A stretch of 48,184 nucleotides of DNA from positions 1-48,184 of the forward strand of contig DASSOM010000190.1 of NCBI GenBank assembly GCA_035700625.1, written 5' to 3'. The number at the start of each line of letters is the position of its first letter. The stretch's first letter is position 1. The DNA is from Vicinamibacterales bacterium (GTDB lineage: Bacteria; Acidobacteriota; Vicinamibacteria; Vicinamibacterales; 2-12-FULL-66-21). The notes beneath the pieces are model-generated. The model had not been told where the DNA came from, ran no database searches, and saw only the letters and a program-made list of their open reading frames with translations. The translations under genes and the position numbers were made by a program. This document shows, piece after piece, positions 8,788-48,184 of the stretch.

Positions 8788-11145
8788 CTACTTCATGTTG
8801 ACGCTGAGGCGCACCGGCGCTTTCGTCGTCACCGACACGGCCTCGCGCTTCTCGCCGAACTGCGGATTGCGGAAGACGACTTCGTGCGGGCCGATCGTCA
8901 CGGCGAGATTGCCGATGGGCGTTTCGCCGACGCGCACGCCGTCGATCCAGACTTCGGCCCACGGCGACGCGTTCAGGTTCACGATGCCCTGCGGCAGGTC
9001 GATCGTCAGCGGCAGCACCTTGCCGGGCGGCACGACGACGGTGCGCGTCGTGTTGTACCCGAGCGTCTCGTTCACCAGCTCGAGCTGGTGGCGTCCGGCG
9101 GCCATCATGATCCGATCGGCGTTCGTGGTGCCGAGCAGCCGTCCGTTCTCGTGGATCTCAATCGTGACCGGCGACTTGAACGTCATCCAGCCCGAGACCG
9201 GGCCCGGCGCTTCGGTCGTGACCGGCGCGAGAACCGATGCGGTCACGCCCGGCTGAATGACGACGCGCTGCGTGACCGGCTCGCCGGCGCCCTGCAGGAC
9301 GACTTCGTGTTCCCCCGGCTCGAGGCCGTCGACGCTCACCGGCGCGACGCCGCGTTCGACGCCGTCGATGGTGACCTTGGCGCCCGCCGGCGTCGACTGC
9401 ACGAGCAGACTGCCCGTCGTCGGCGTCTGCGGCATCTCGAGGTACTGCGACACCTCGGCGCCCGGCGTCACCGTGATCGGAATCACGCGCGGCACCCCGC
9501 GTCCGCGGAGTTCGACGATGTGCGAACCGCCGCTGAGGGACAGCCGCGCGGGCGTGAGCCCGTGCGCGACGCCGTCGACGAAGACCTGCACCCCGGGCGG
9601 ATTCGTCTGGACCGAAAGCGTGCCGGTCGACGGCGCGGCCGCGCCCGGCTGCCGCCAGACGCGAGCGTAGTACCACCCGCCCCCCGCGACCGCGAGCAGC
9701 AGCAGGGCGACACCGAGCAGACGTCCGCTGCCGCGCTTCTTTCCGGGCGCCGCGGCGGCGGGCGCGGGGTCGCGCCGATCCGTGGACGTGCGATCGCCGG
9801 TGAACAGCTGATCGCGCTCGCGATCCGCCGGCGTGATGCCGTCGAAATCGTCGAGCAGGTCTCTCAGATCGCGGGCCGGCGGAACGGATTCGGCGACGCT
9901 GGCGGCGATCGGCGTGACGACGGGCGCGGACGAGGGCGTGGCCGTCGGTGCGGGCGTGGCCGTCGGCGCCGGCGAGCGCTCGACGCGCGGCGTGACGACG
10001 GTCGGCGCGGGCGCAGGTGGACGCGGCGTGACGACCGTGGGCGCGGGCGCGGCCTGGCGCGGCGTGGGTACCGTCGGCGCAGGAGGCGGCGGCGTCTGCG
10101 TGCGCGCGGTCGCCTGCGGCGGCACCGCGGGAGTCGGCACCGCGGAGGTCGCCGCCAGCACCGGCGACGGCGTTTCGAGGAACGCGGCCTTCGAGACCGG
10201 CACGGGCGTCGGCGCCGGAGCCGGAGCCGGCGCGGCCGGCGTCGGCGGCTCGAGCAGCGCGGCCACGTAGCGCGACAGGAACGTCTCGAGCGCGACGGGC
10301 GCGGCGACGAATCCCGTGTCTTCCGCCAGCACGTCCTCGAGCGCGCTCAACGCCTCGGTCGCGGACGCAAACGCGCGGCGGAGATCGAGCTGCAGTGCAC
10401 CGGCGAGCCATCCGCGCAGCGACGGCGGCAGCGGCTGCTCCTCGCCGAGCGCGGACTTGGCGCGCACCTCGTGCAGCAGCATCGGCAGGCGGTGCGGGAA
10501 CTCGTCCGCGCGCAGCGGACGCCCGAGCATCAGCGCGAGCGAAATCAGGCCGAGGCCCATGACGTCGGCACGATGGTCGAAGCGCGGCGCGCCGGCGCTC
10601 TGCGGCACGGCGACGCGCAGCTCCTGCCAGAGCCGCTCGCGGCCGAACTGCAGCTGTTCGACCGCCGACCCGAGCACGTGCTCCGCGATCACGAGCCGCG
10701 CGTGCGGCGTGACGATGAGCCGCTCGGGCGCGAGCAGGCCGTGCGCGACGTCGCGCGCATTCTCGTGCAGCAGCGCAATGGCCGGCACGAGCTGCCGAAT
10801 GAGGCACAGCGCGGCGTTGATGTCCAGGTTCAGGCCGCGTTCGGCGGTGACGCGCAGAATCTCCGAGAGCCGCGTCCCCTCGACGTGATCCGCCACGATC
10901 GCGAGCCCCGCGGGATGGCGATCGACGCGCCGCACGCGCGCGTAGTAGGCGTGGCGGAAATTGGCGAGGCGCGCCGTGCGTTCGCGCAGCGCAAACTCGA
11001 ACGACGGCACCGCGAGGAGTGCGGGACGGAGGCGCAGAATCTGCAGCAGGTCCCCGGTGGCGCCGTCGACCGCGACCACGCGCTCGCCGAGGCCGTCGGT
11101 GAAGAGAGGCGCTTCGGCGCGGTCGGATGTCACGGGGACCGTCAT
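8788..11145 (-). CDS. Degenerate Ser/Thr kinase-like (pseudokinase) membrane protein with a Pro-rich region, one TM segment and three PEGA-type domains
   Basis: 785-aa ORF. The N-terminal ~260 aa have a kinase-fold flavour (ADVMGLGLISLALMLGRPL resembles subdomain IX). The catalytic motifs are replaced: there is no GxGxxG loop, AHGLLAPERLIV stands in place of HRDLKPxN, and AEHVLG in place of DFG. The TM segment is LLGVALLLLAVAGGGWYYA. PEGA-like repeats are LSVQTNPPGVQVFVDGV, LLVQSTPAGAKVTIDGV and NLNASPWAEVWIDGV. Confidence 0.8.
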   Translation of the reverse strand: MTVPVTSDRAEAPLFTDGLGERVVAVDGATGDLLQILRLRPALLAVPSFEFALRERTARLANFRHAYYARVRRVDRHPAGLAIVADHVEGTRLSEILRVTAERGLNLDINAALCLIRQLVPAIALLHENARDVAHGLLAPERLIVTPHARLVIAEHVLGSAVEQLQFGRERLWQELRVAVPQSAGAPRFDHRADVMGLGLISLALMLGRPLRADEFPHRLPMLLHEVRAKSALGEEQPLPPSLRGWLAGALQLDLRRAFASATEALSALEDVLAEDTGFVAAPVALETFLSRYVAALLEPPTPAAPAPAPAPTPVPVSKAAFLETPSPVLAATSAVPTPAVPPQATARTQTPPPPAPTVPTPRQAAPAPTVVTPRPPAPAPTVVTPRVERSPAPTATPAPTATPSSAPVVTPIAASVAESVPPARDLRDLLDDFDGITPADRERDQLFTGDRTSTDRRDPAPAAAAPGKKRGSGRLLGVALLLLAVAGGGWYYARVWRQPGAAAPSTGTLSVQTNPPGVQVFVDGVAHGLTPARLSLSGGSHIVELRGRGVPRVIPITVTPGAEVSQYLEMPQTPTTGSLLVQSTPAGAKVTIDGVERGVAPVSVDGLEPGEHEVVLQGAGEPVTQRVVIQPGVTASVLAPVTTEAPGPVSGWMTFKSPVTIEIHENGRLLGTTNADRIMMAAGRHQLELVNETLGYNTTRTVVVPPGKVLPLTIDLPQGIVNLNASPWAEVWIDGVRVGETPIGNLAVTIGPHEVVFRNPQFGEKREAVSVTTKAPVRLSVNMK

Positions 11146-21060: not shown

Positions 21061-21112
21061 GGAACCAAAGCTGGCCTTGTTTCGTCTAGGCCTAGAGTGA
21101 AATAGTGTGGTC

Positions 21113-21460
21113 ATGAAGATGGGCCGAAGGGACCTGTTTGCGGGGGCGCTCGAGATGATGATCCTGCAGGTGCTCGCGCGGCAGCCGCTGCACGGGTATG
21201 CGCTCGTGCAGCACATCCAGCGCGCGTCGCGCGACCTGCTGGCGGTCGAGGAAGGATCGCTCTACCCGGCGCTCCAGCGGCTGCTCAAAGCCGGATCCGT
21301 CAAAGCCCAGTGGCGGATGTCGTCGACCGGGCGCCGGGTCCGCACCTATGAGATCACGGCGGCGGGGCGCCGTCACCTCGGGCGCGAAGTGTCGCAGTTC
21401 GAGCGGATGCTCGAGGGCATTCGCCTCGTGCTCGGGCCGGTGGATCCGGCGACGGAATGA
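21113..21460 (+). CDS. PadR family transcriptional regulator
   Basis: The translation MKMGRRDLFAGALEMMILQVLARQPLHGYALVQHIQRASRDLLAVEEGSLYPALQRLLKAGSVKAQW is a canonical PadR winged helix. The track starts it at GTG 21107; ATG 21113 or 21119 is equally possible. Confidence 0.9.
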   Translation: MKMGRRDLFAGALEMMILQVLARQPLHGYALVQHIQRASRDLLAVEEGSLYPALQRLLKAGSVKAQWRMSSTGRRVRTYEITAAGRRHLGREVSQFERMLEGIRLVLGPVDPATE

Positions 21461-24129
21461 GCTGGTTCGGCCGGCGCGACGAGGATCTGGCGGAGGAAAT
21501 CAGCCAGCACCTCGACGAGGCGGTCGAAGACCTGGTCGAGCGGGGCGTCCCGCGGGACGAGGCGATGTCGATGGCGCGGCGGCAGTTCGGCAACGTGACG
21601 CTCATCGCCGAACGCAGCCGGGAGGTCTGGCGCTGGCGGCTCGTCGAGGAGACGTGGGCTGATCTGCGCTACGCGGCGCGGCAGCTGCGCCGCGCGCCGT
21701 CGTTCGCGGCCGCCGCGATCGCCACGCTCGCGATCGGGATCGGGGCCACCGCCGCGATCTTCAGCATCGCGGACGCGGCGCTCCTGAACCCGCTGCCTTT
21801 CCCCAACCCGGATCGTCTAGTGACGATCAACGAGATCGTGCCGCTCGTCGGCAATCGTCCCATCAGGCTGACCGCCCCGGATCTCCTCGATTACGCCGCG
21901 CAGAACCGCACGTTCGACGCCATCGCGGGCTGGACGCCGCGAACCTTCGAGCTCTCGGGCGTGCGTGAGTCGGAGCGCGTGCAGGCCGTCCGCGCGACCG
22001 CACCGTTTTTCGACGTCCTCGGCGTACACCCGTCGCGTGGACGCATCTTCACGAACGAAGAGGATGCCGGCAGCGCAGCCGTCTGCGTGATCAGCCACGG
22101 GCTGTGGCAGCGATGGTTCGGCGGCGACCCGCGCGTGCTCGATCGGACGATCGATCTCGATCGGATCCCGTACCGCGTGATCGGCGTCATGCCACGCGGG
22201 TTCGAATTTCCGCTGCGCGGAACCGACGCCCGCGACGCGACCGACGTGTGGGTGCCGATGTCGCTCACGCCGCGCGAACGCGACGCGCGCGGCGACAACT
22301 GGGACTACAACGGCATCGGACGCATGAAGCCGGGCGTCACCGTCGCGCAGGCGAGCGCCGACGTGAACGCCATCGCGCAGCACATCGTGAAGGACGTGCT
22401 GCCGGCGGACCGCCCCGCCTCCTTTACCTTCAGCGCGATCGCGCAACCCCTGGCGCCGCAGGTCTCCGGCAGTGTGCGGCCGCTGGTGCTCGCGCTGGCA
22501 GGGGCCGTCGCGTGCGTCCTCTTGATCGCCTGCGTGAACGTCGCGAATCTGCTGCTCGCGCGCGGCGCGCACCGGCGGCGGGAGATGGCGGTCCGCGCGG
22601 CGCTCGGCGCCGGACGCGCACGGATCCTGCGCCAGCTCATGGCGGAAACGCTCCTCTTCTCGGTCGTCGCGGCCGTGATTGGCGCGCTGCTGGCGTGGTG
22701 GAGCACGGCGGCGCTCGCGCGCATCGTCCCCGATCGCTTTGCCATCTTCGGCATCGCGCGCGTCAACTGGACCGTCCTGGCCTTCATCGCCGGCGTCGCG
22801 ATCGCCGCCGCCGTGCTCGCGGGGCTCGCGCCGGGGCTCACAGCCGGTTCGCGCGGCTTCGACGGCATGAACCAACGCGCCGGCTCCGGCGGTGCGGGGC
22901 ATCGCCGCCTTCGCGCGGTGCTCGTCGTCGCCGAGATGGCACTCGCGCTCGTGCTGCTCGTCGGCGCGGGACTGTTCGTCCGCACGTTCCAGACGCTGCT
23001 GCAGACGAACGCGGGCTTCCGCCCGGAAGGGGCGGTGAGCGCATTCATCAGCCTGCCCGAAACGGATTACACCGACGCGGCACGTGAGCGGCAGCTCTAT
23101 CGCAGCCTGATCGAGCGTCTTCACGCGCGGCCGGGCGTGGCGCAGGCGGGCATCGGCTCGACGCTTCCGCTCAACGGTCTGCGATCCGAGCGTACGTTCT
23201 GGCCCGAGCACTACGTGCCGCAGCCGAACGCCGGCTTCAACATCGCCGCGATGAGCGCCACGAGCCCCGAGTACTTGCAGGCGGTCGGCGCGACGCTGCT
23301 GCGCGGACGTCTGTTCACGCCGCAGGACGATGGCGTCGGCTCGCCGGTGGCAATCGTGACGGAATCACTCGCCCGGCAATACTGGCCGGACGCCGACGCC
23401 GTGGGCAAGCGGCTGAAGTGGGGCACCCGGGAATCGTCCAGGCCGTGGCTGACGATCGTGGGCGTGGTGGCCGATGTGAAGCAGGAGGCGCTCGACGAGC
23501 CCGGCGCACCGCAGGTTTACGTCCCCGCGGATCAGCTCGAACGCGCGGTCGGGCCTGACCTCGCCTCGGCCATCGTGTCGGGTCACCTCCGCTCCATGTA
23601 TGTCGTCGTGCGCGGCAGCGCACCCGAGGAGGCGCTCGCTGCCGCGCTCCGCGAGTCGGTGCAGGAGCTGGACGGCCGTCTGGCCGTCGCGAAGCTTGCG
23701 CCCCTGACGGACGCCGTCTCGACGTCCGCGGCGCCGCAGCGCTTCAACATGGCGCTGATGTCGGGGTTTGCCGCGATTGCGGTCCTGCTGGCCGCCGTCG
23801 GCTTGTACGGGCTGCTCGCCTACTCGGTCGCGCAGCGCACACGCGAGATCGGCATTCGAATGGCGATGGGCGCGGCCGCCGGCGCGGTGGTCCGCATGAT
23901 CCTGCGCGAGGGCCTCATGCTGGCTGCGATCGGCATCCTGCTGGGCGCGGGCGCGGCCGCCCTGCTCGCGCCGGCGCTGCGCAGCCTCCTCTTCGGCGTC
24001 GAGCCGCTCGACCCGCCGACGTTCCTGGCGGTCGCCGCACTCCTGCTCGTCGTCGCCGCCGTTGCCACGTGGGTCCCCGCCCGCCGCGCGACACTGGTGG
24101 ATCCGACCACCGCGCTGCGCGCGGAGTAA
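21457..24129 (+). CDS. Duplicated orphan FtsX/MacB-type ABC permease (ADOP family)
   Basis: 890-aa ORF overlapping the padR stop by 4 nt. The N-terminal helix (EEISQHLDEAVEDLVERG), then RYAARQLRRAPSFAAAAIATLAIGIGA, and two MacB-periplasmic/FtsX halves are the architecture I know as the acidobacterial duplicated orphan permease. That family is typically paired with PadR. Confidence 0.88.
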   Translation: MSWFGRRDEDLAEEISQHLDEAVEDLVERGVPRDEAMSMARRQFGNVTLIAERSREVWRWRLVEETWADLRYAARQLRRAPSFAAAAIATLAIGIGATAAIFSIADAALLNPLPFPNPDRLVTINEIVPLVGNRPIRLTAPDLLDYAAQNRTFDAIAGWTPRTFELSGVRESERVQAVRATAPFFDVLGVHPSRGRIFTNEEDAGSAAVCVISHGLWQRWFGGDPRVLDRTIDLDRIPYRVIGVMPRGFEFPLRGTDARDATDVWVPMSLTPRERDARGDNWDYNGIGRMKPGVTVAQASADVNAIAQHIVKDVLPADRPASFTFSAIAQPLAPQVSGSVRPLVLALAGAVACVLLIACVNVANLLLARGAHRRREMAVRAALGAGRARILRQLMAETLLFSVVAAVIGALLAWWSTAALARIVPDRFAIFGIARVNWTVLAFIAGVAIAAAVLAGLAPGLTAGSRGFDGMNQRAGSGGAGHRRLRAVLVVAEMALALVLLVGAGLFVRTFQTLLQTNAGFRPEGAVSAFISLPETDYTDAARERQLYRSLIERLHARPGVAQAGIGSTLPLNGLRSERTFWPEHYVPQPNAGFNIAAMSATSPEYLQAVGATLLRGRLFTPQDDGVGSPVAIVTESLARQYWPDADAVGKRLKWGTRESSRPWLTIVGVVADVKQEALDEPGAPQVYVPADQLERAVGPDLASAIVSGHLRSMYVVVRGSAPEEALAAALRESVQELDGRLAVAKLAPLTDAVSTSAAPQRFNMALMSGFAAIAVLLAAVGLYGLLAYSVAQRTREIGIRMAMGAAAGAVVRMILREGLMLAAIGILLGAGAAALLAPALRSLLFGVEPLDPPTFLAVAALLLVVAAVATWVPARRATLVDPTTALRAE

Positions 24130-32800: not shown

Positions 32801-34390
32801 CTAGACGATCTCGAACGCCTCGATTTCGCCGTGGCGGCCGCGGAGCGACACCGCGCCCAGAGGGCGCGTCTCGACGGGGCGCGCGAGCCGCTCGAGCGTC
32901 GCGCGCGAGATGACGATCTGACCGGGGCGCGCGACAGACGACTCCAGCCGTGAGGCGATGTTCACCACGTCGCCGAGGACGGTGAACTCGCGGCGGCGCG
33001 GCGACCCGATGTCGCCGGTCAGCGCGCGCCCGCTGTTGATCGCGATCCGGACTTCGAGCGGACGCGGCTGGCTGCGGTTCATCTCCGCGAGCGAGCGGCG
33101 CATGGCGACCGCCGCCTGCACGGCGCGGTCGGCGTGATCCCGCTGGGCGAACGGCGCCCCGAAGACGGCCAGGATCGCGTCGCCGATGAACTTGTCGAGC
33201 GTGCCCTCCAGCTCGAAGATCTCGTCCGCCATGCGCGTGAAGTGCTGGTTCAGCAGCTGCGCGACGTCCACAGCGGACATCCCCTCGCACATCGTCGTGA
33301 ACGACACGAGGTCGCAGAACATCACCGTGACGTCGCGCTCCTGCGCGAGAAACGGCGCGTCGATCCCGGAACCTCCCTGCAGAATCCGGTTGACGACCCC
33401 CGGCGAGTGATAGCGCTGCAGCCGCTCGCGGCGTCGCGTCTCCTGCAGCAGCTGCTCCGACGTCCGCGCCTGTTCGATCGCCACCGCGGCGTAGTTGCAC
33501 AACGCGGTGAACACTTCCAGATCGTTCGGCACGAACTTCTTCGATCGCGGGTTGTCGGCGTAGAGCACGCCGATCACTTCGTTCCGGTTCCACAACGGCG
33601 CGCACACGAACGACCGGACGTTCAGCGCCTGGATGCTGCCGGCCGTGTCGAGGCGCGGATCGTACAGCGCGTCGGCGGCGAGCATCGCGACCCGCTCGCG
33701 CATGACGTGGTTGATCACCGTCCGGCTGAGCGTCGTCTGCTCCGGCGCCGACCCGTCGCGGTTGCGCAGCACGCGCGCCGTCAGCGCCTCGTGCGCCGAA
33801 TCGCGCAGCAGCAGGAACACGCGCTCCGCCGGCACGACGTCGAACACGAGATCGACGACGCGCGTCAGCACCTGCGTGAGCGGCTGGACGGTGACGAGCG
33901 TCTTGCCGATCTCCGTCAGCAGCCGGAGCAGGCGCGACTGCCGGCGCTCGCGGCCGCTGCGGCGATTCCGGCTCGCGAACGGCCGATCCGTCTTCCTCCG
34001 ATCCGACCCGCTGCGGCGCTCCTTCGCCGGGGACGCGGCCACGACGTCGCCGGTGGGTGCCTCGTCGGCGTCGCTGTCGATCTTGCGGACGAGCGTCCCC
34101 GAGTCCTCGAGGAGCTGATGCTCCTCCGAGAGCAGCGTCCCGGCGTCGAGCCGCTGCTCGAGCGCGAGCGTGATCTGGCCGCACTGGATGACGTCCCCCG
34201 CCGTCAGCGCAACGTCCCGCGCCACCGGCTGGCCATTGAGAAGGGTTCCGTAGCGGCTGCCCGCGTCCGAGAGCACGCAGCGGCCGTCCGCAAGCGACAG
34301 CCTCGCGTGCTGGCGCGAGATGCCGGGCGCGTTCAGGACGATGTCGCAGGACGGGGCGCGGCCGATGAGCGTGGTGCCCGGCGCGAGCAC
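32801..34390 (-). CDS. FHA - GAF - class III adenylate/guanylate cyclase
   Basis: 529-aa ORF from GTG 34390. The FHA domain is TLIGRAPSCDIVLNAPGISRQHARL...GSRYGTLLNGQPV. The GAF region includes VFLLLRD...SFVCAPLWNRNEVIGVLYADN. The cyclase domain is VTVMFCDLVSFT...DKFIGDAILAVFGAP...INSGRALTGDIGS...FTVLGDVVNIASRLES. The true 5' end is uncertain: FHA-like sequence continues for 17 codons upstream, right up to the kinase stop codon (see findings). Confidence 0.88.
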   Translation of the reverse strand: MLAPGTTLIGRAPSCDIVLNAPGISRQHARLSLADGRCVLSDAGSRYGTLLNGQPVARDVALTAGDVIQCGQITLALEQRLDAGTLLSEEHQLLEDSGTLVRKIDSDADEAPTGDVVAASPAKERRSGSDRRKTDRPFASRNRRSGRERRQSRLLRLLTEIGKTLVTVQPLTQVLTRVVDLVFDVVPAERVFLLLRDSAHEALTARVLRNRDGSAPEQTTLSRTVINHVMRERVAMLAADALYDPRLDTAGSIQALNVRSFVCAPLWNRNEVIGVLYADNPRSKKFVPNDLEVFTALCNYAAVAIEQARTSEQLLQETRRRERLQRYHSPGVVNRILQGGSGIDAPFLAQERDVTVMFCDLVSFTTMCEGMSAVDVAQLLNQHFTRMADEIFELEGTLDKFIGDAILAVFGAPFAQRDHADRAVQAAVAMRRSLAEMNRSQPRPLEVRIAINSGRALTGDIGSPRRREFTVLGDVVNIASRLESSVARPGQIVISRATLERLARPVETRPLGAVSLRGRHGEIEAFEIV

Positions 34391-34441: not shown

Positions 34442-36103
<1,662 letters not shown>

Positions 36104-36148
36104 TTCGGGAATCCGGATGGACGCGACAGTATAGCAGTCACACGAACC

Positions 36149-37129
36149 ATGCCCCTGCTGCTCCGTGAAACCGATGTCCGCGCCGTGCTGCCGATGACCG
36201 ATCTCATCGCGGAGATGGAAGTCGCGCTCGCGCAGTTCTCTGCCGGGGCCGTGCAGCAGCCGCTGCGCACCGTGCTGGAAGTCGGCAGCGAACACGCGTT
36301 CTTCGGCGTGATGCCGGCGGCGTTGCGCGATCCCGACGCGGTCGGGACGAAGCTGGTCACGGTCTTTCACTCGAACGCGAGCCGCGGGCTGCCGTCGCAC
36401 CTGGCGACGATCGTGCTGTTCGATCCGCACACGGGTGCGCTCGTCGCCATCCTCGACGGCCGCTACATCACGGAAGCGCGGACGGCCGCGGTGTCGGCGG
36501 TCTCGACGAAGCATCTCGCGCGCGAAGGCGCGCGGTCGCTGGCGATTCTCGGATCCGGCGTCCAGGCGCGCAGCCATCTGGAAGCGCTCGGCTGCGTGCG
36601 CACGTTCGAGGAGGTGCGCGTGTGGAGCCCGACGCGCGCGCACGCGGACGCCTTCGCCCGCGATCATCAGGCGGGAACGCCCGCGCGCATCAGCGTCGCG
36701 GCGTCACCCGAAGCCGCGGTCGCGGGCGCGGACGTCGTCGCGCTCGTAACGGCGTCGCGCGAACCGGTGGTGCGTGACGAATGGATCGCGCCGGGCGCCC
36801 ACATCTGCGCGGTGGGAGCGTGCCGTCCGGATCAGCGCGAGGTGGACACCGCGCTCGCCGTCCGCGCGCGCGTGTTCGTCGATTCGCGCGTCGCCGCGCT
36901 GGCGGAAGCGGGGGACCTCGTCATCCCCATGAAGGAGGGAGCCATCGGCCCCTCACATATCGTCGGCGAGCTCGGCGACGTCGTCGCAGGCCGGGTTCAG
37001 GGACGCCTGGGCGATACCGACGTGACGATGTTCGAGTCGCTGGGGATGGCGGTGGAGGATGTGTCGGCCGCGCGCCTTGCCTGGGAACGGGCGCTGGAGC
37101 GCGGCCTGGGGACCAAGATCACGCTGTAG
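36149..37129 (+). CDS. Ornithine cyclodeaminase / mu-crystallin family protein
   Basis: Only the last 326 codons of track ORF 35624..37129 are real. The start is ATG 36149 (MPLLLRETDVRAVLPM). Family blocks are GVMPAAL...GTKLVTVF, ITEARTAAVSAVSTKHLAR, LAILGSGVQA and HICAVGA. Confidence 0.88.
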   Translation: MPLLLRETDVRAVLPMTDLIAEMEVALAQFSAGAVQQPLRTVLEVGSEHAFFGVMPAALRDPDAVGTKLVTVFHSNASRGLPSHLATIVLFDPHTGALVAILDGRYITEARTAAVSAVSTKHLAREGARSLAILGSGVQARSHLEALGCVRTFEEVRVWSPTRAHADAFARDHQAGTPARISVAASPEAAVAGADVVALVTASREPVVRDEWIAPGAHICAVGACRPDQREVDTALAVRARVFVDSRVAALAEAGDLVIPMKEGAIGPSHIVGELGDVVAGRVQGRLGDTDVTMFESLGMAVEDVSAARLAWERALERGLGTKITL

Positions 37130-40160: not shown

Positions 40161-41603
40161 TCAGATCCGGAGGCGAAGGAACCGCTTCATCCTCGCCACG
40201 AGACTATTCGTCTCGAGTGCAACCCCACTCCCCGCCGCCGCGCGGACCTGGTCGAGCTCCGCGCGGCGCGCAGCCGCCGCGACGCCAATCCGCTCGACGG
40301 CGGCCGCGTCGCCCGCGCCGAGCTCCCGGAACAAGTCGGCCCCGAGTTCGATGACGGCGACGTCGCCGCGAGCCACCACCGTCGCGGACCGCGGCTCCCC
40401 CGTCAACAGCGACATCTCCCCGAAATAGCCGCCGGCGTCGATCTCGGCCACCTGGCGCCCATCCGGTTCGACGACCACCGCCACCTTGCCGCTGCACAGC
40501 ACGAACATCGACTCGCCGGGTTCTCCCTGGCGCACGAGCGCTTCACCGTTGCCGAACGTCCGCATGGTGGTCGCCGCGGCAATCGCGGCGCGCTGCTCCG
40601 TCGTCAAACCCGCGAACAGGTCGATGCGTGCGAGCGCCGCTTCGCGCTCGAGGCGTCTGGTGTTGTCGTCCGGCTCCGGCCACTCGCGCGAATAGCCGAC
40701 CTCGATCGGCCACGGAATCTCGATGTTGTGGCGCGCGAACACGTAGTAGATTGCCGTGCGCACCTCGTCGCGCGCCTCGTCGTCGAACTCGTAGTCGGCG
40801 ACCCAGAAGCGCGCTTGATAGTTAATCGCCGACCCGTCGAACGAGAGCAGCAGCGCATCGGGCGCCGGCGACGCCAGGGCGCGCGGCACCTGGCGAATCG
40901 CCTCGAGAATCGCGGCCTTGACCGTGTTGGGCGGCACGAGGTAGCTCGCGCCGACCTCCACCGTCAACCGCGTGGGAATCACCGGCTCCGAGTAGTTGGT
41001 GACCGGTTCCTTCGCGACGAAGTTGTTGGGCAGGATGATGAAGGTGTTCGCGCGCGTGCGCAGCTTCGTCGCGCGCCAGGTCACTTCCGTGACCTGCCCT
41101 TCCAGATCGCCGACGCGGATCCACTGGCCGACGTGGAACGGCTTCTCGCTCTGCAGCGCGAGGCCGGCGAACGCATTGCCGAGCGTGTCCTGGAGCGCGA
41201 AGCCGAGCACCACGGCGCTGACCGCGGACGTCGTGACCAGCTCCTCGCTGAGGAACATCGCCGCCACGAGGACGCCGCCGATGACGAAGGCGTCCTGCAG
41301 GATCGCGGGGAACCGGTCCGGAACGCGGTTCTCGCGCAGCGGGTTGATGACGGTGATGACGACGAGATTGATGAGCGCGGCGGCGAGCGCGAGCGCTTCG
41401 AAGTCGCGGAGGTGCGCTTCCGCCCCCGCGGTGGCCGCGGGACGCAGCAGCACGAACAGGTTGACGGCAATGTAGCCGGCGAGCAGGACGAACGAGAGGC
41501 GCAGCTTGCGCCTCACGAGCCGGTTCGTGCTGATGCTGAAGACGCCGAACGTGACGGCCAGCGCCGTCACGCCCAGCATCAGATGCCCGGGGTAGTGCGG
41601 CAT
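40161..41603 (-). CDS. MscS-family mechanosensitive channel with C-terminal cyclic-nucleotide-binding domain (bCNG-type)
   Basis: 480-aa ORF. After the N-terminal TM helices comes the MscS core, LGNAFAGLALQSEKPFHVGQWIRVGDLEGQVTEVTWRATKLRTRANTFIILPNN. The CNB domain is FAGLTTEQRAAIAAA...GEALVRQGEPGESMFVLCSGKV...GGYFGEMSLLTGEPRSATVVA. Confidence 0.9.
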   Translation of the reverse strand: MPHYPGHLMLGVTALAVTFGVFSISTNRLVRRKLRLSFVLLAGYIAVNLFVLLRPAATAGAEAHLRDFEALALAAALINLVVITVINPLRENRVPDRFPAILQDAFVIGGVLVAAMFLSEELVTTSAVSAVVLGFALQDTLGNAFAGLALQSEKPFHVGQWIRVGDLEGQVTEVTWRATKLRTRANTFIILPNNFVAKEPVTNYSEPVIPTRLTVEVGASYLVPPNTVKAAILEAIRQVPRALASPAPDALLLSFDGSAINYQARFWVADYEFDDEARDEVRTAIYYVFARHNIEIPWPIEVGYSREWPEPDDNTRRLEREAALARIDLFAGLTTEQRAAIAAATTMRTFGNGEALVRQGEPGESMFVLCSGKVAVVVEPDGRQVAEIDAGGYFGEMSLLTGEPRSATVVARGDVAVIELGADLFRELGAGDAAAVERIGVAAAARRAELDQVRAAAGSGVALETNSLVARMKRFLRLRI

Positions 41604-41610
41604 CCGGGGC

Positions 41611-42762
41611 TCAGCCCGCGATCCCTTTCCGGAACGTTTCGAGTTCCGCCGGCGTGATCGTCACCTGAACGGCGTTCTTGTTCGCGCCGCCGGTTGCCAG
41701 CGTGTCCGGGCCGATGGCGCGACCGCCGGCCGACGCCACCGTCTGCGACGACTGCGCCTGCTGTCCGCTCGACAGGCCGAACTTGCCGAGGAGACCACCC
41801 TTCTTCTTCGGCTCCGCGGGTTTTTCCTCTTTTCCATCCGTCTTCTCGGCGGCCGACGAGCCGCCGCCCGCGAGGCCTCGCGATCCGGGCGCGACCGTCG
41901 CGATGTCCGTCACCGGCTTCGCCTCGAACGTGATGTGTTCCTTGTAGCGGGCGGCGACGGTCGCCGTCGCATGCAGCTTCTCCTGCGCGATCAGCTTCGT
42001 GAGCGCGTCGATTCTGGCCTTCGTGTCGGGATGAGAGGCGAACAGCCCGTTCGGCGCGTCGCTGCCCTTGTTGCGATCCGAGAGCAGCGTCAGCGCCTCC
42101 ACCAGCCCGGACGGCGCGTAGCCGACCTGATTCGCGAGCCGCACGCCGACCTTGTCCGATTCCATCTCGTCGCCGCGGTCGAACTGGTTCTCGAGCACCA
42201 TGTGGTACGCCTGCTCGGCGATCCGGCTGACGATCTCGGACGTCAGCGTTCCGGTCCGCGACTGCTCGGCGCCGAGCGACACCACTTTGCTCTTTTGAAT
42301 CGCATGGACGGTGTGCTTCGCGGTGACGTGCGTGATCTCGTGGCCGAGCACACCCGCCAGCTGCGCTTCGTTCTGCATCAGGCCGAGCAGCCCGCGTGTG
42401 ACGTGCACGATGCCGCCGGGCGCGGCGAACGCGTTGACGCCGTCCGTGTCGAGCACGATGAACGTCCAGTTCAGGTTCGGGCGCGAGCTGGCCTGCGCGA
42501 GCACCGTCCCGACGATCGCCACGTACTTCGTGACCTCGGCATCCTGATACACGCCGAAGGTGTCGCGAAGACGGCGGCTGACGTCCTCGCCGATCTTCCG
42601 CTCATCCTGTTCGGAGATGTTGAGGTCCGCGACCTTCTTCGCCGCGTCCTCAGCTTTCTTGGCCTTGCCGAGAATGCCGCTCAGCTGCGCGGACGCTGGT
42701 GCGGCGAGCACGAGCGTCATGACGCACGACAGGACGAACGCCGCTGGAGTCGATCTGGTCAT
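41611..42762 (-). CDS. Secreted M48 family zinc metallopeptidase
   Basis: 383-aa ORF with a signal peptide (VLSCVMTLVLAAPASAQ). The HExxH motif occurs in VLGHEITHV, and NAFAAPGGIVHVTRGLL is also present. The C-terminus is low-complexity and Gly/Lys-rich. The start overlaps the upstream cyclase stop (ATGA). Confidence 0.88.
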   Translation of the reverse strand: MTRSTPAAFVLSCVMTLVLAAPASAQLSGILGKAKKAEDAAKKVADLNISEQDERKIGEDVSRRLRDTFGVYQDAEVTKYVAIVGTVLAQASSRPNLNWTFIVLDTDGVNAFAAPGGIVHVTRGLLGLMQNEAQLAGVLGHEITHVTAKHTVHAIQKSKVVSLGAEQSRTGTLTSEIVSRIAEQAYHMVLENQFDRGDEMESDKVGVRLANQVGYAPSGLVEALTLLSDRNKGSDAPNGLFASHPDTKARIDALTKLIAQEKLHATATVAARYKEHITFEAKPVTDIATVAPGSRGLAGGGSSAAEKTDGKEEKPAEPKKKGGLLGKFGLSSGQQAQSSQTVASAGGRAIGPDTLATGGANKNAVQVTITPAELETFRKGIAG

Positions 42763-44810
42763 AGGGCCTGTTCCTCCCGGCTCTGGATCGGCGACGGCAC
42801 ACGAACCTCGAAAATGGCCACCGGCTTCGTTTTACCCTTCACGACGACGTCGCCGAGGGGCCGGGTGTCGAACGCGCCGGTCAGGCGCGTCCGGGTTGCG
42901 TCGCTAATGATAATGCGGGTCCGGTATTCCTTGTTCAGGGATTCCAGCCGGGACCCGAGGTTCACGTTGTCGCCGATCACCGTGTAGCTCATGATCGACG
43001 AGGACCCGATGTTGCCGGCGATCATGTCCCCCGAGTTCACGCCGATGCCGATATCGAGCCGGGCCTTCCCTTCCGCGGCCCAGCGTGCATTGAGGACGGC
43101 CAGCTCGCCAACCATGTCCACCGCCGTCCGCACCGCGTGCTCGGCGTGGTCCGGATCGTCCACCGGCGCGCCGAACAGCGCCATCACCATGTCGCCGACG
43201 AACTTGTCGACGGTGCCGCCGTGGCGGAAGACGACCTCGACCATCTTCGAGAAGTACTCGTTCAACTGGCTGACGATCTCCTCGGGGTTGCCGCGCTCGG
43301 TCACGCTCGTGAACCCGCGGATATCCGAGAAGAGGACGCTCATGTCGCGCCGCGTGCCGCCGAGCTCGGCCATCTCAGGATGCGCGATCAGCTGCGCGTG
43401 CACGTCCTTCGACACGTACCGGCCGAACAGCCGCGACACGACGCGCTTCTCGCGTCCTTCGACGAAGTACTGATAGGCCGTCCCCGCGAACAGCGCGATC
43501 GCGGCTGCGGCGAGCGGCTGCGCGAGATTCAGCCACAGCCCGCCGCGGAACGCACCGATCGTCAACCACGTCCATCCCCCGGCGATCGCGGCGGCCGACA
43601 CGCCTGCCGCCGCAAAGGGCAGGAACGCCGACAGCAGTCCCACGCCCGCCGCGGCAATCGCGACCGCGGCCACGCGCGACGCGTTCGACGCGGGACGGAT
43701 GAAGCGTCCCGACAGGACGCTGTCGGTCATGCTCGCGTGGAGTTGAATCCCCGGCATCGTCCCGCGCGGCCCGAACGGCGTGGGGAACACGTCCATCAAC
43801 CCGGACGCCGTCAGCCCGACGAAGACGATCTTGTTCTTGAAGACGGCGGGATCCACCAGCGGTTTCTCGCCCGCGAGGATCTGCTGCTCCGAGAACAGCA
43901 GGTGCCGCAGCTCGTACGACGGATACGGGCGCTTGCCGTCCACGAGCGCCGGCGCCCGATAGTTCACCAGCATCGTCCACTGCTGATGCGTCTTCGACGC
44001 GTCGTACGCGCTGCGCACCGTCACCGGCACGAGCGGAATACGGCGGCTCCCCGCGACGATGGCGTCGCCGTCCAGCGTCACGTCGCGCGGCGCGATGCCG
44101 GCAGCACGCAGTGCCACGGCCAGGCCCAGCGACGGCAATGCGTGCTGCCCCTGACGGATGAAGGGCGCCATGCGCCGCGCCGGGCCGTCCGGATCGAGCG
44201 CGAGAAAGTTGTGGCCGAGCCCGGCGGCGGCGTCCGTCAAGGCCGGCACCGGCGGGAGGACGACCGGCCGTTCTTCGATCGCCGGACCGAGGCGATATCC
44301 GGGATCGCGCCAGGCCGGTGCAGACGAGGACTGCGTGCCGTTCGTCACCCCTTCGTTCACGGCGTCCGCGAGCAGGATCACGTTGCCCGATGCCTTCACC
44401 GAATCGGCGAGTGCCTGATCGCTTTCCGCTCCACTGATCGTCTGGCCGTTGAGGTCGTACTGCTGCACGACGTCCGGTTCGGTGAACAGCAGGTCGAGTG
44501 CGACGACGCGCGCGGGGGCGCGCTGAAGATAGTCGAGCAGGATCGAAAAGGCGACGCGCGGCCAGGGCCAGTGACCCAGCACCGGCGCGAGATCGCGAAT
44601 CGTCGTGTCGTTGATCTCGACGAGGACGATGTCCCGGTTGACCGACGCGGGATTGGCGGCGAGGCGAACGCGCCAGTCGTACGCCTTCAGTTCGGCGGTC
44701 TCGAAGGCGCCCGCTGCCGCCAGCAGCAGCACGAGCGCGGCGGTTCCGCCCCCGAGCGCCAGGCCGGCCAGGAGCTTGCGCCCCGCGCGCCGGCGTTCGT
44801 CCCTGGTCAT
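42759..44810 (-). CDS. CHASE2 sensor domain - class III adenylate/guanylate cyclase
   Basis: Track ORF 42759..44945. Start moved to ATG 44810 (MTRDERRRAGRKLLAGLALGG). The CHASE2-like extracytoplasmic region is AYDWRVRL...IVLVEINDTTI...WPWPRVAFSILLDYL...VVALDLLFTEPD. After the TM cluster the cyclase domain is MSVLFSDIRGFTS...DKFVGDMVMALFGAP...VNSGDMIAGNIGS...YTVIGDNVNLGSRLES. Confidence 0.9.
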   Translation of the reverse strand: MTRDERRRAGRKLLAGLALGGGTAALVLLLAAAGAFETAELKAYDWRVRLAANPASVNRDIVLVEINDTTIRDLAPVLGHWPWPRVAFSILLDYLQRAPARVVALDLLFTEPDVVQQYDLNGQTISGAESDQALADSVKASGNVILLADAVNEGVTNGTQSSSAPAWRDPGYRLGPAIEERPVVLPPVPALTDAAAGLGHNFLALDPDGPARRMAPFIRQGQHALPSLGLAVALRAAGIAPRDVTLDGDAIVAGSRRIPLVPVTVRSAYDASKTHQQWTMLVNYRAPALVDGKRPYPSYELRHLLFSEQQILAGEKPLVDPAVFKNKIVFVGLTASGLMDVFPTPFGPRGTMPGIQLHASMTDSVLSGRFIRPASNASRVAAVAIAAAGVGLLSAFLPFAAAGVSAAAIAGGWTWLTIGAFRGGLWLNLAQPLAAAAIALFAGTAYQYFVEGREKRVVSRLFGRYVSKDVHAQLIAHPEMAELGGTRRDMSVLFSDIRGFTSVTERGNPEEIVSQLNEYFSKMVEVVFRHGGTVDKFVGDMVMALFGAPVDDPDHAEHAVRTAVDMVGELAVLNARWAAEGKARLDIGIGVNSGDMIAGNIGSSSIMSYTVIGDNVNLGSRLESLNKEYRTRIIISDATRTRLTGAFDTRPLGDVVVKGKTKPVAIFEVRVPSPIQSREEQAL

Positions 44811-45049
44811 GTGAGCCCACAGGATAGCGCAGGCCGTACATCCAGACAGCGCGCGTCCAGCGGATGTGCTAAGCTCCCCCGCGCGCCTGGGCCCTTCTGG
44901 GTCCGCGAGCCGCTCCCCAGTATGCCCCCCGGCTTGCGTCGGCACGGCGGCATGAGGGCCTGTCCCTCGCCACGCGGCTGTTCCCTCGCCTGCGCCCCGG
45001 CCACACCTCCTTCGAGTTGCCGCGCCTTCTGACAGGCCGTCAGGATCCC

Positions 45050-48000
45050 ATGCCTCCCGATCTGTCGACGAAGCTGGTCTCGCTGGCGCAGCTGATGGCG
45101 TATGCGGCGGAAGCCGACGGACGCGTCACGCCCGAAGAGTTGTCGACGCTCCACGAATTCCTCGGACGCCAGTACTCCGGAACCGCGCGGTCCGAGTTCT
45201 TCGACCTGTTCAGGCAGGCGCTCCGGAACCGTCCGGATATCGAGCGGATCGTCCAGGCGATCCACGAGGGCCTGCCTGACTACCTGGAGCGCCTGGACGT
45301 CTACGCGACGATCCAGACGCTGCTTGCGGCAACCGGGATGACCCCGGAGGAATCGTACGGGCTCGGCAAGGTCGCATCGCTCCTCGACATCGAGCCGGCG
45401 GACGCGGATCTCCTGGCCAACGTCACCGCGCCGGTCCCCGAGTTCCGGTACCCCTCGAACCGCGAGCGGTTGCTGCGCATCGGCGCGGACGTGCCTGACG
45501 GCTTCGCCGCCGCACGGGATCTGCGCGTGACGGCGCTGTCGCTGGCGGGAACCTTCGCCCTGGCGAGCGAACGCGTCGAACTGTTCGTGGACGGCGTCGG
45601 ACATCCGCCGGGAGACATCGTGTTCCTGCGCCCCGGCGATCAGGTGTGGACCTCTGGCACCTCGATCGGATTTGCCGATGTGTCGCGGCTGTTCGACCTG
45701 GCGAAGAAGCGCGTGATCCACGTCTGCCGGCTCGCGGTCGACGGCGCGCGGCTGATCGCCGTCGGGGAGACCGGCGCGTGCGCGTTCGAACTGCGCATCC
45801 AGGACACCGGACTGTTGTTCGTGAGGCGCGATGGGAAGGCGCCCGTGCGGCTGAACGGCGAACCTGTCGACTCCGGCGTGGTTCTTCTGCCGGCTGATGT
45901 GCTGCACTTCGGGTCCGGCGAGGTGCGCGTGTCGCAGATCCTCGACTCGCTCGACCGCGCGGCGTGGCCGCTGACCGAGTCGGCAGAGGCCTCCTTCAAA
46001 TACGTCATCTCCGATCGACCCGGCGTCGCGGCCAGCGTCGTCGCCGACGTCGGCGGACCGGTGTCGATCACCATTGCCGAATCCGGCGACAGCGCGGCCC
46101 CCTTGACCGTCGCCTGCGATGAATGCCAGACGGACGTGCCGGTCAGCCTTGCGGATGCGCCCGTGGTCCCCGGAACGCTCGTGCCGCTCTCGTCGAACGC
46201 GGTGCTTCGCATCGGCCATCACTGGTTCGCGATCGATCCGCACACGCTGAAAGTGGAGTACTCGAAACGCGTCGTCGAGCGGTTCGAGGCGCGCGACGTG
46301 CGCTACCGGTTCCGGAACGCCGTCGGGCTGGACGGCATCAGCCTGACGGCGCGATCCGGCGAGCTGGTGGGCATCATGGGCGGCAGCGGCGCGGGCAAGT
46401 CCACGCTGCTCGGCGTGCTGCTCGGCATCCTGGAGCCCCACGAGGGAGCGGTCCTGCTGAACGGCGAGGACCTGCGCGGCCAGCTGCGCCGCTGCCGCTC
46501 GATCCTCGGCTACGTCCCTCAGGACGACCTGGTCATGGACAGCCTCACCGTCGAGGAGAACCTGCTGTATGCCGGGCGGATTCGCCTCCCGGGTCTGCCC
46601 GACGCGGAGCTTCAGCAGCGAGTCGCGCGCGTCCTCCGCGACATCGGGTTATTCGAGCGAAGGCATCTGCGCGTCGGCAATCCCGTCGAGAAAGTGCTGT
46701 CGGGCGGCCAGCGGAAGCGTCTGAACATCGGGATCGAGCTGCTCGCGGATCCGGAGCTGTTCTTTCTGGACGAACCCACGTCGGGGCTTTCGTCGCAGGA
46801 CTCGACGACCATCATGGGACTGCTGCGGCAGCTGACGCACCGCGGCAAGCTCGTGTTCGTCGTCATTCATCAGCCGAGCTCTGACATCTACAAGATGTTC
46901 GACCAGGTGCTGATCCTCGATACCGGCGGCGTGCTCGTCTGGTACGGGCCGGCGCGCGACGCGGTGGGGCACTTCAAGGCGTTCCTGCCGCACCATCGCG
47001 ATTTCGTCGAGTGTCCGGCGTGCGGCTCCATCAACCCCGAGACCATCCTCAACGCGATCGAGCAGCCCCCGTCGGTGCTGCGGACGCCGGCGGACGCGCC
47101 GACGAGGAAGTTCGATCCGCAGTTCTGGAGGAACGCCTACGTCCTCAGGCAGCGGACAGAGCCGGCCGAGGCGGGGCCGCCGCTGCTGCTGCCGCGGGCG
47201 CCGTCCGCGGGACTCCGCGGCAACGTTCGCGCGCTGCGCGCGTCGATCGCGCGGGCCTTCGTGGATCGCGCCCGGAACCGCACGAACATCGTCATGAGCG
47301 TCGCCGCCCCGTTGTTGCTGGCGCTGGTGATGGCCGCCATGCTGCGCGGCCCCGATGAGCCGTACACCTACTCCGGCAACACCGCGCTCGGGAAGTTCTT
47401 CTTCCTCTCGACGATCGTGTTCGTCTTCTTCGGCTTGATGGGCAGCGTCAACGAAGTGATTCGCGAGGTGGCGCTGATCCGCCGCGAGCGCGTCGCCGGC
47501 TTCAAGCCGAGGCAGTACATCGCCGCCAAGACGGTGGCGTTCCTGCCGTTCGCGCTGCTGCAGGTGGGCATCTACACCGTCATCGCCAGCCTCGTGCTGC
47601 AGTTTCCCTATCGCGCGCCGGGCTACAGCCCCGTGCAGCCGGTCGTACCGTTCCCCTGGTACTTCGCCCTCGTGCTGTTCCTCACCGGGCAGGCCGCGTT
47701 CGCGCTCGGGCTGCTGCTCTCCTCGTGCCTTCGCACCCAGGCCGCGGCGTTCAACTGGATTCCACTCGTCATCGTTCCGCAGATTCTGCTCGGCGGCGTG
47801 TTCGTCCAGTTCTCGGAGATGCCGACGCTGGTGAACCGCGTCGTTCCCGAGTATGCGGAGCTGGCATTTTCGCGGTGGGGCTACGAGGCGCTGCTGGCGG
47901 GCGAAAAGAATTTCAATCCGTCCGATCACTTCAACGCCGACGCGATCCTCGCGCTGCAGGCCTCGCACCTCGCGCGCGGCGAGCGCTTCGACATGAACGC

Positions 48001-48184
48001 GCTCGTCCAGGTGCCGAAGGACCGGTGGCGAGGCGAGCCCGGCATGCGGCTGCCTCCACCGCGCCTGTCGTCGAAGTTGCTGCACGAGACGCTGCTGGAG
48101 CGGCTTCGCGTGTACGACCGCACGGCCGAAGCGGAGATGCTCGAAGACGCCTATCAGCGCGTGGACCGCCGGTCGTACACGCTC
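45050..48184 (+). CDS. Large fusion protein (over 1045 aa, 3' end off the window): TerB-like N-domain, beta-rich FHA-like modules, ABCG-type ATPase, ABC-2 type permease and a C-terminal extension
   Basis: Absent from the ORF track because no stop lies in the window. My plus-strand translation from ATG 45050 is stop-free to 48184 (1045 codons).
- N-terminus: MPPDLSTKLVSLAQLMAYAAEADGRVTPEELSTLHEFL (TerB/DjlA-N-like).
- FHA-like strand pattern: VRLNGEPVDSGVVLLPADVLHFGSGEVRV.
- Walker A: GIMGGSGAGKSTLL (~46378).
- ABC signature: LSGGQRKRLNIG (~46696).
- Walker B: LFFLDEPTSGL.
- ABCG-type motif: VIHQPSSDIY.
- Hydrophobic ABC-2 membrane segments span about 47270-47870. Confidence 0.85.
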   Translation, partial: MPPDLSTKLVSLAQLMAYAAEADGRVTPEELSTLHEFLGRQYSGTARSEFFDLFRQALRNRPDIERIVQAIHEGLPDYLERLDVYATIQTLLAATGMTPEESYGLGKVASLLDIEPADADLLANVTAPVPEFRYPSNRERLLRIGADVPDGFAAARDLRVTALSLAGTFALASERVELFVDGVGHPPGDIVFLRPGDQVWTSGTSIGFADVSRLFDLAKKRVIHVCRLAVDGARLIAVGETGACAFELRIQDTGLLFVRRDGKAPVRLNGEPVDSGVVLLPADVLHFGSGEVRVSQILDSLDRAAWPLTESAEASFKYVISDRPGVAASVVADVGGPVSITIAESGDSAAPLTVACDECQTDVPVSLADAPVVPGTLVPLSSNAVLRIGHHWFAIDPHTLKVEYSKRVVERFEARDVRYRFRNAVGLDGISLTARSGELVGIMGGSGAGKSTLLGVLLGILEPHEGAVLLNGEDLRGQLRRCRSILGYVPQDDLVMDSLTVEENLLYAGRIRLPGLPDAELQQRVARVLRDIGLFERRHLRVGNPVEKVLSGGQRKRLNIGIELLADPELFFLDEPTSGLSSQDSTTIMGLLRQLTHRGKLVFVVIHQPSSDIYKMFDQVLILDTGGVLVWYGPARDAVGHFKAFLPHHRDFVECPACGSINPETILNAIEQPPSVLRTPADAPTRKFDPQFWRNAYVLRQRTEPAEAGPPLLLPRAPSAGLRGNVRALRASIARAFVDRARNRTNIVMSVAAPLLLALVMAAMLRGPDEPYTYSGNTALGKFFFLSTIVFVFFGLMGSVNEVIREVALIRRERVAGFKPRQYIAAKTVAFLPFALLQVGIYTVIASLVLQFPYRAPGYSPVQPVVPFPWYFALVLFLTGQAAFALGLLLSSCLRTQAAAFNWIPLVIVPQILLGGVFVQFSEMPTLVNRVVPEYAELAFSRWGYEALLAGEKNFNPSDHFNADAILALQASHLARGERFDMNALVQVPKDRWRGEPGMRLPPPRLSSKLLHETLLERLRVYDRTAEAEMLEDAYQRVDRRSYTL

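Follow-up and report, generated by a model that had tools for sequence, protein, structure and literature searches.

Bacterial ATP-binding cassette (ABC) exporters of the ABCG type that carry a regulatory N-terminus have essentially one studied representative, Rv1747 of Mycobacterium tuberculosis, the substrate of which is still debated. The FHA domains of Rv1747 bind threonines phosphorylated by PknF, a kinase encoded in the same operon (PMC3138270). Tandem FHA domains are also found in EssC, where they do not have the residues that contact phosphothreonine (pThr); they are needed for a stable and functional protein, and no phosphopeptide partner was found for them (PMC4925161). TerB, on the other hand, is described as a partner of the membrane protein TerC (PMC11003894). 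Here we describe a gene whose product resembles each of these proteins in part. The DNA analysed (the window) is an entire contig of 48,184 bp, GC content approximately 68%, from a metagenome-assembled genome (MAG) deposited at NCBI under the label Vicinamibacterales bacterium (Acidobacteriota). The gene lies at the right edge of the window (45050-48184, + strand), which holds the 5' 1045 of its 1151 codons, and it encodes a protein with a TerB domain, three putative pseudo-FHA modules and an ABCG-type transporter in which the nucleotide-binding domain (NBD) precedes the transmembrane domain (TMD). What we add to the initial annotation of this DNA is the apparent FHA ancestry of the modules together with the loss of their pThr site, a CxxCG signature, an expanded loop domain, and a conserved cassette of three genes that has no conserved link to the neighbouring cyclase gene.

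The frame is free of stop codons from the ATG at 45050 to the end of the window (1045 codons upon translation), an AGGA motif is situated 5 nt before the ATG, and the GC content at the third and second codon positions (0.89 and 0.45, respectively) is like that of the neighbouring genes. The last 106 codons are beyond the window. Two independent Logan assemblies (L001 and L002) contain an identical gene that continues to the stop codon, which gives a full-length protein of 1151 amino acids (aa; P0001). The initial annotation had proposed a plus-strand gene of over 1045 codons, open to the window edge and hidden from the list of open reading frames (ORFs), and this proved correct. The gene is missing from the list because its frame runs off the contig end and such ORFs were omitted; as a caution, ORF lists easily miss genes that are cut at contig ends. 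The two minus-strand ORFs listed instead (44807-46441 and 46649-48085), previously taken for antisense shadows, do exist and are both rejected by a test of codon-position GC that all real genes of the window pass. The transporter gene is real and not an artefact.

The NBD occupies residues ~411-645 (46280-46984, + strand), as delimited by Pfam (PF00005, ABC_tran, residues 427-578, E 2.3e-31), by invariant motif columns and by matches to PDB sequences. Walker A (GGSGAGKST, 444-452), the Q-loop, the signature (LSGGQRKR, 550-557), Walker B (LFFLDEP, 570-576) with the catalytic Glu575, and the H-loop (HQPS, 607-610) are all present and invariant in ten orthologues; the clean motifs noted earlier were found in their places, and judging from them the NBD is catalytically intact. 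The ABC-2/ABCG-type membrane domain follows, with TM1-TM5 (transmembrane segments 1-5) at residues ~722-913 (47213-47788, + strand), located by Pfam (PF01061, ABC2_membrane, residues 729-951, E 6e-28), hydropathy, model helices and fold matches. All of the top 50 Foldseek matches of the transporter half in PDB are ABCG proteins, i.e. ABCG2, ABCG5/8, ABCG1, AtABCG25 and ABCG16 (E 1e-24 to 1e-20, TM-score (target) 0.7-0.8, identity 22-25%; for ABCG2, ABCG5/8 and ABCG1, E about 1e-24 and TM-score (target) 0.75). By sequence, CDR1, ABCG1 and ABCG2 rank first in PDB (~1e-45). Both results are in line with the ABC-2 (type V) exporter fold and with the earlier description as an ABCG-type half transporter. 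No NCBIfam model is passed by the window protein; the best one, TIGR00955 (EPP/ABCG 'white' subfamily), reaches 266 bits vs a cutoff of 736, and by this measure the transporter is related to that subfamily and not a member of it. An interpretation as an anti-phage defence system was dropped, as PADLOC gave generic ABC-ATPase matches only (mad3, mad8); the two partner proteins described below had no match there.

A short cysteine motif was detected between the NBD and the TMD in the family alignment (CPACG, residues 655-659, 47012-47026, + strand). This CxxCG knuckle stands at a fixed distance from Walker A in 24 of the 28 family members, and it is found in none of 29 proteins in which FHA domains are fused to an ABC transporter (FHA-ABC fusions). 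There is one CxxC per protomer, and in a homodimer the two could make an inter-protomer Cys4 metal site.

The full-length model (pLDDT 81.2, pTM 0.70) shows, in this order, a seven-helix TerB bundle, three modules, the NBD, five TM helices, a loop domain and a sixth TM helix, and hydropathy agrees with the model on six TM segments. The loop between TM5 and TM6 is a mixed alpha/beta domain of ~195 aa (residues 926-1123), identified from full-length P0001, hydropathy and the model; its beginning is within the window (47825-48184, + strand), while TM6 (residues 1124-1149) and the stop codon are beyond it. The stretch has no Pfam match. TM1 is preceded, and TM6 followed, by basic residues, and because of this distribution the positive-inside rule places the loop outside the cytoplasm, i.e. 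it is predicted to face the periplasm. The loop domain, TM6 and both partner genes are at or beyond the window edge and did not figure in the initial annotation.

The first ~110 residues had been compared to a TerB or DjlA-N-like helical bundle, and we find the same: PF05099 (TerB) matches residues 12-120 (45083-45409, + strand) with 29.9 bits vs a cutoff of 24.4 and covers 111 of 118 model positions, and helices between residues 5 and 124 of the structural model form a seven-helix bundle. A weak match to DUF533 was also detected in the N-terminus. TerB is found in 20 of the 28 family members (best E 9e-15), and an orthologue fragment (P0121) scores as high as 55.7 bits. The first acidic motif, ADGxVxxxE (D23, G24, E30), is conserved in most members. 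A profile search with the TerB segment against PDB sequences gave chance-level matches only, and genes for TerC, TerD, TerZ or TerA were not found in the window. Metal or membrane-stress sensing has been proposed for TerB domains in general, with the DGxxxxxE acidic motifs as a ligand or metal site; TerB is also found in non-metal settings, such as DjlA.

The region between TerB and the NBD consists of three modules. M1 (residues ~141-219, 45470-45706, + strand) is a beta sandwich with a helix, M2 (residues ~223-299, 45716-45946, + strand) is an FHA-like beta sandwich that keeps only a structural LNG turn, and M3 (residues ~305-406, 45962-46267, + strand) is a beta sandwich directly before the NBD that ends in an invariant RIGHHxFAIDP motif. 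The limits of M1 and M2 were taken from models and hhalign, and those of M3 from hhalign and invariant columns. An AlphaFold model of residues 126-421 based on ten orthologues (pLDDT 82.5, pTM 0.71) contains the three beta modules with short helices between them. FHA domains make up about 30 of the top 50 Foldseek matches of this middle region in PDB (probability 0.9-1.0, TM-score (target) 0.43-0.50, best E 0.015), among them Ki67, Rv0020c, FhaA, GarA, OdhI, Rad53, RNF8 and the YscD-like 4d9v, and the second-ranked match is the core unit of the Bacillus subtilis type VIIb secretion system (9qks, 238 columns aligned).

Profile comparison with the genuine FHA domains of FHA-ABC fusions points in the same direction. 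In hhalign, M1 matches these domains with 96% probability (P 4.7e-9) and M3 with 79% (P 1.6e-5), and the modules also match each other (M1 to M3, P 1e-7; M1 to M2, P 1.2e-4; M2 to M3, P 3.6e-4), while controls with column-reversed modules and with the TerB segment gave P values of 0.1-0.9. The significant matches came from a diverse alignment of long-form proteins (A5); a shallow orthologue alignment (A2) compared to N-termini with three FHA domains was non-significant (P 0.011), and a profile search with the middle region against PDB sequences returned chance-level matches only. The families initially named as candidates for this protein were partly recovered by Pfam: TerB, ABC_tran and ABC2_membrane are matched, whereas FHA (PF00498) and Yop-YscD_cpl (PF16697) have no match at E<=1 in the window protein. 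Likewise, 59 families were matched across 28 relatives, and of the 25 that were listed none belongs to the FHA clan. The alignments also show that the pThr-contacting residues (Arg of GR, Ser and His of SxxH, Asn of NG) are missing in all three modules: M1 has GA in place of GR and a deletion of the SxxH loop, nothing equivalent is seen in M2 or M3, and the asparagine of NG is not conserved. On the strength of these alignments we regard M1-M3 as pseudo-FHA domains, i.e. derived from FHA domains and devoid of the residues for pThr binding.

Two genes are conserved downstream of the transporter gene. The first encodes a helical protein of ~278 aa with a signal peptide and a lipobox-like Cys (a putative lipoprotein), the second a beta-rich protein of ~148 aa with a signal peptide. 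Both are found beside every close orthologue for which flanking DNA is available (L003, L004 and L005), with 55-64% identity among these loci, and the contig of the orthologue P0007 has two genes of matching size downstream, assigned by size alone. The 278-aa partner is also present in L001 and L002. Among the more distant loci, L013 has both partners in the same order, and the N-terminus of the adjoining relative is ~22% identical (E 5e-25; hhalign 99%, P 3.8e-18); in L007 both partners are upstream of the ABC gene, i.e. rearranged (E 2e-6 and 2e-12), and in L011 the helical partner is beside a short-form relative (E 1e-6). A 148-aa protein of L011 was considered as a homologue of the small partner, and this could not be demonstrated (P 0.034). 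Neither partner has a Pfam family or a PDB sequence match, apart from a sub-threshold hint of PPC in the small beta-rich protein (E 0.016). Some further genes near these loci may be mentioned. STAS-domain genes near two distant relatives (L007 2309-5594, together with a HAMP-SpoIIE phosphatase, and L010 1837-2172), and the genes for TerC and FtsH that adjoin the relative P0027 in L008 (3502-6810), are possible regulatory or functional hints. The window has a gene for a PadR regulator and, after it, one for a tandem MacB_PCD/FtsX permease (21107-24129, + strand), and the same pair is just downstream of the cassette in L005 (12856-15830); this recurrence is probably a coincidence because the pair is common in Acidobacteriota.

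The close orthologues (P0002-P0010) are 58-67% identical and keep the whole architecture. The initial annotation had asked whether both the fusion and the divergent cyclase neighbour are kept in orthologues; the former is, whereas the latter is confined to the lineage of the window (see below). One of them, P0010 (1015 aa, L005 8001-11437), has a C-terminal tail that diverges from about residue 905 and a gap of 390 nt before the partner gene; a frameshift or assembly error is probably the reason, rather than a genuinely shorter protein. The close clade is present in only one of 185,579 species-representative genomes, the source MAG itself, and two scans of metagenome contigs found no relatives. 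When residues 1-421 were compared exhaustively (phmmer) to 1.84 billion cluster representatives, only nine proteins were found. These include five proteins of 1146-1199 aa that are 22-27% identical, and four of the five have a TerB match and ABC domains (just two of the TerB matches pass the Pfam cutoff, and P0128 has no TerB match). A word-index search with N-terminus-only queries had zero matches, and since even the identical P0001 was missed this is an artefact of the index and not evidence of rarity.

The wider family has a long form, with TerB and three modules in an N-terminus of 386-462 aa, and a short form with an N-terminus of mostly 233-254 aa, which we read as TerB plus a single module; some short-form members are labelled Bacteroidetes or Cytophagia by their source. 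Beyond the family, the ABC proteins most closely related to it are genuine FHA-ABC fusions (31-34% identity), many of them from Polyangia and many with three FHA modules. An FHA-ABC ancestor in which pThr binding was later lost and TerB was gained would fit this pattern, and we infer such a course of events from the sequences. No publication on an ABC transporter with a TerB cap came up in full-text literature searches, and NCBIfam has no specific model, in agreement with the earlier remark that no such characterised protein was known. However, the TerB-ABC fusion is not unseen, because database proteins of the same layout carry automatic TerB and ABC Pfam annotations; they are uncharacterised.

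Taken together, we favour the view, as the probable one, that the protein is a homodimeric inner-membrane exporter of the ABCG fold, or an ATP-driven envelope machine, that is gated by its TerB/pseudo-FHA region and works with periplasmic partners. The half-size ABC-2/ABCG transporter, with the NBD before the TMD, would most likely form a homodimer in the inner membrane of the Vicinamibacterales bacterium. ATP hydrolysis would drive the outward movement of an envelope-directed substrate, which may be a lipid, a glycolipid or another amphipathic molecule as in other ABCG/ABC-2 exporters; alternatively, it may drive conformational changes of the loop domain on the periplasmic side. The two partners in the periplasm would receive or assist this output. 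The TerB/pseudo-FHA region might act as a built-in regulatory and scaffolding module that gates or stabilises the NBD dimer. In such a module TerB would sense a cytoplasmic cue, a metal ion or a membrane-stress signal, and the FHA-like modules would serve protein-protein interaction or assembly independently of phosphorylation, in the manner of EssC, rather than read kinase marks like those of Rv1747.

There are several points that weigh against this view. The homodimer is assumed, given the half-transporter layout and a cassette that has no second ABC gene. The TerB score of the window protein itself is modest (29.9 bits), and the second acidic motif of TerB is degenerate, as only G96, E100 and E101 are left. 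The proposal of three beta-rich, degenerate FHA modules in the initial annotation holds for M1 and M3, which have profile homology, and is backed by the fold matches, in which FHA domains dominate; on the other hand, the FHA kinship of M2 is marginal (hhalign 27%, P 6.8e-4), and no Foldseek match of the FHA-like region in PDB reaches E<=1e-3, all E values being above 0.01. Finally, the partner genes are missing in the vicinity of the distant relatives L008, L009 and L010, so that members of the wider family may not all depend on these partners.

A different output is conceivable, and we consider it a minor possibility, namely that the protein is a mechanotransmission machine that follows the logic of MacB or FtsEX: ATP hydrolysis would move the loop domain in order to activate or remodel the partners, and no substrate would cross the membrane. 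The unusually large loop domain of ~195 aa, predicted to be periplasmic, the two dedicated secreted partners conserved in the cassette, and the lack of obvious conserved genes for substrate biosynthesis nearby would all suit such a machine. The membrane domain, however, is of the ABCG/ABC-2 fold. To our knowledge every characterised protein with this fold serves to translocate or extrude a substrate, and MacB and FtsX have a different fold. Moreover, large extracellular domains are also present in lipid exporters of the same fold class (the ABCA family).

The regulation may also be of a different kind. If the protein were an exporter of the Rv1747 type, its FHA modules would read kinase-written pThr and it would be wired into the cluster of CHASE2 cyclase and cyclic nucleotide (cNMP) genes that neighbours it. 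It is true that, outside the family, genuine FHA-ABC fusions are the ABC proteins closest to it and that M1 and M3 are FHA homologues, and in Rv1747 phosphorylation by PknF activates the transporter via the FHA domains (PMC3138270). Kinases and FHA proteins are also nearby, as first noted: a Ser/Thr kinase (34442-36667) and an FHA-GAF-cyclase (32801-34390) are 8-12 kb away. In addition, a gene for a CHASE2 protein with a class III cyclase (Pfam; 42759-44810, - strand, 683 aa as called) is transcribed divergently from the transporter gene. The intergenic region common to both (44811-45049) measures 239 nt given the 683-aa gene call, practically the 240 nt first reported; a scan of 44700-45150 recognised no sigma-70 promoter or terminator, and no Rfam element was found anywhere in the window.

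The cyclase gene is nevertheless outside the conserved unit, being found only in the window, L001 and L002. The same holds for the M48 and MscS genes, and tblastn agrees that the three flank the transporter solely in this lineage. The four remaining orthologue contexts each have a different upstream gene: PG_binding-like (L003), NMT1_3 (L004), an unknown gene (P0007 contig) and FMN_dh (L005). The initial annotation had suggested a regulated exporter integrated into cyclase signalling; because the divergent cyclase neighbour is restricted to the lineage of the window, this coupling is not supported. With respect to kinases, the nearest one in the window is 8.4 kb from the transporter and on the opposite strand, none of the eight contexts has a kinase gene within or adjoining the cassette, and according to tblastn a kinase of L003 shares only the generic kinase domain. 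The modules themselves had no Pfam FHA or Yop-YscD match at E<=1, nor was there an FHA-clan family among the 25 listed of 59 matched. The GR, SxxH and NG residues are gone from all modules. Kinase or pThr control of the Rv1747 type is unlikely, and we regard this whole explanation as improbable.

Slightly less credible still is a metal or metalloid efflux pump for Ter-like stress, in which a metal bound by TerB and the CxxCG knuckle would be exported, either itself or as a conjugate. The TerB domain is there, the conserved knuckle is specific to the family, and one distant relative is near a TerC gene (L008), whereas TerC, TerD and TerZ genes are absent from the window and from the other contexts, TerB is present as well in proteins unrelated to metals (DjlA), and in this protein its second acidic motif is degenerate. 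No pump of the ABCG fold is known to us as a metal-ion transporter. Last, the idea that the gene is a pseudogene, or that the frame is open by chance in DNA so rich in GC that long spurious ORFs do arise (two of them on the opposite strand here), is already effectively refuted and deserves practically no credit in view of strong Pfam domain matches, codon-position GC of the coding type, identical full-length copies in independent assemblies, and orthologues 58-67% identical along their full length.

Some neighbouring genes of the window may be of interest in their own right. The cyclase gene heads a minus-strand group (40161-44810) with an M48 peptidase gene, which it overlaps by 4 nt (42759-42762), and a third gene, which encodes an MscS channel whose C-terminus carries a cNMP-binding domain; the three look like one cyclic-nucleotide signalling operon. 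The Ser/Thr kinase mentioned above (741 aa, 34442-36667, - strand) is directly followed on the same strand by the FHA-GAF-class III cyclase (32801-34390), which has a canonical FHA domain (PF00498, 67 bits), and these two look like a kinase-coupled cyclase pair. Further away, three PEGA domains (PF08308, E 2e-31) are the only domains that could be recognised in a protein of 785 aa (8788-11145, - strand).

If the preferred reading of a gated exporter or envelope machine is carried further, we speculate that the cassette might represent an unrecognised class of machines for envelope export or remodelling in diderms such as the Acidobacteriota, with a related short form in lineages that resemble Bacteroidota. 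Such a machine could be switched by a cytoplasmic signal (metal, redox or membrane stress) by means of TerB and an inter-protomer Cys4 site formed by the CxxCG knuckles, and it would be a phosphorylation-independent rewiring of the FHA-ABC design. This is a tentative proposal, which we hold to be improbable as a whole. Were the preferred reading confirmed, the cassette would offer a tractable example of how an ABC exporter is gated by non-kinase cytoplasmic signals and a first molecular context for TerB outside the Ter clusters, and soil phyla that have been little studied would be shown to share a conserved set of envelope genes.

It is instructive to compare the protein to the known systems in general terms. 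Firstly, over residues ~411-1151 it has the same fold and domain order as the eukaryotic ABCG half-transporters (ABCG2, ABCG1, ABCG5/G8, AtABCG25), and the half-transporter layout common to both implies dimerisation. In contrast to these it is bacterial, it is far under the TIGR00955 cutoff, it has a regulatory N-terminus of 410 aa, and the equivalent of extracellular loop 3 (ECL3) is expanded to ~195 aa. Secondly, its TerB domain is a helical bundle with a DGxxxxxE motif, as in TerB of terZABCDE, DjlA-N and DUF533/YebE. The stand-alone TerB proteins differ in as much as TerB is here fused to a transporter with no Ter genes nearby and its second acidic motif is degenerate. Thirdly, tandem pseudo-FHA domains at the cytoplasmic N-terminus of a membrane-embedded ATPase are also a feature of EssC/YukB of type VIIb secretion; EssC, unlike the window protein, has an FtsK/SpoIIIE ATPase, two modules and no TerB.

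The closest parallels are with the FHA-ABC fusions and Rv1747. M1 and M3 are profile homologues of the FHA domains of the fusions (Polyangia and others), and many fusions have three modules as well. Rv1747, named in the initial annotation as the nearest described analogue, is in our judgement a fair choice as the nearest characterised one: this FHA-FHA-ABCG exporter likewise has cytoplasmic FHA-derived modules before an ABC-2/ABCG half-transporter in which the NBD precedes the TMD. The window protein differs from Rv1747 and the FHA-ABC fusions in several respects, namely in its N-terminal TerB domain, in modules that have no pThr residues and escape the Pfam FHA models, in the CxxCG of its family (present in 0 of the 29 fusions), in a much larger TM5-TM6 loop domain, and in two conserved genes for secreted partners. 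The same chassis seems to have been re-equipped: the FHA modules are retained for structure or interaction without phosphopeptide binding, TerB is added, CxxCG is inserted, and the outer loop is expanded and joined by two periplasmic proteins.

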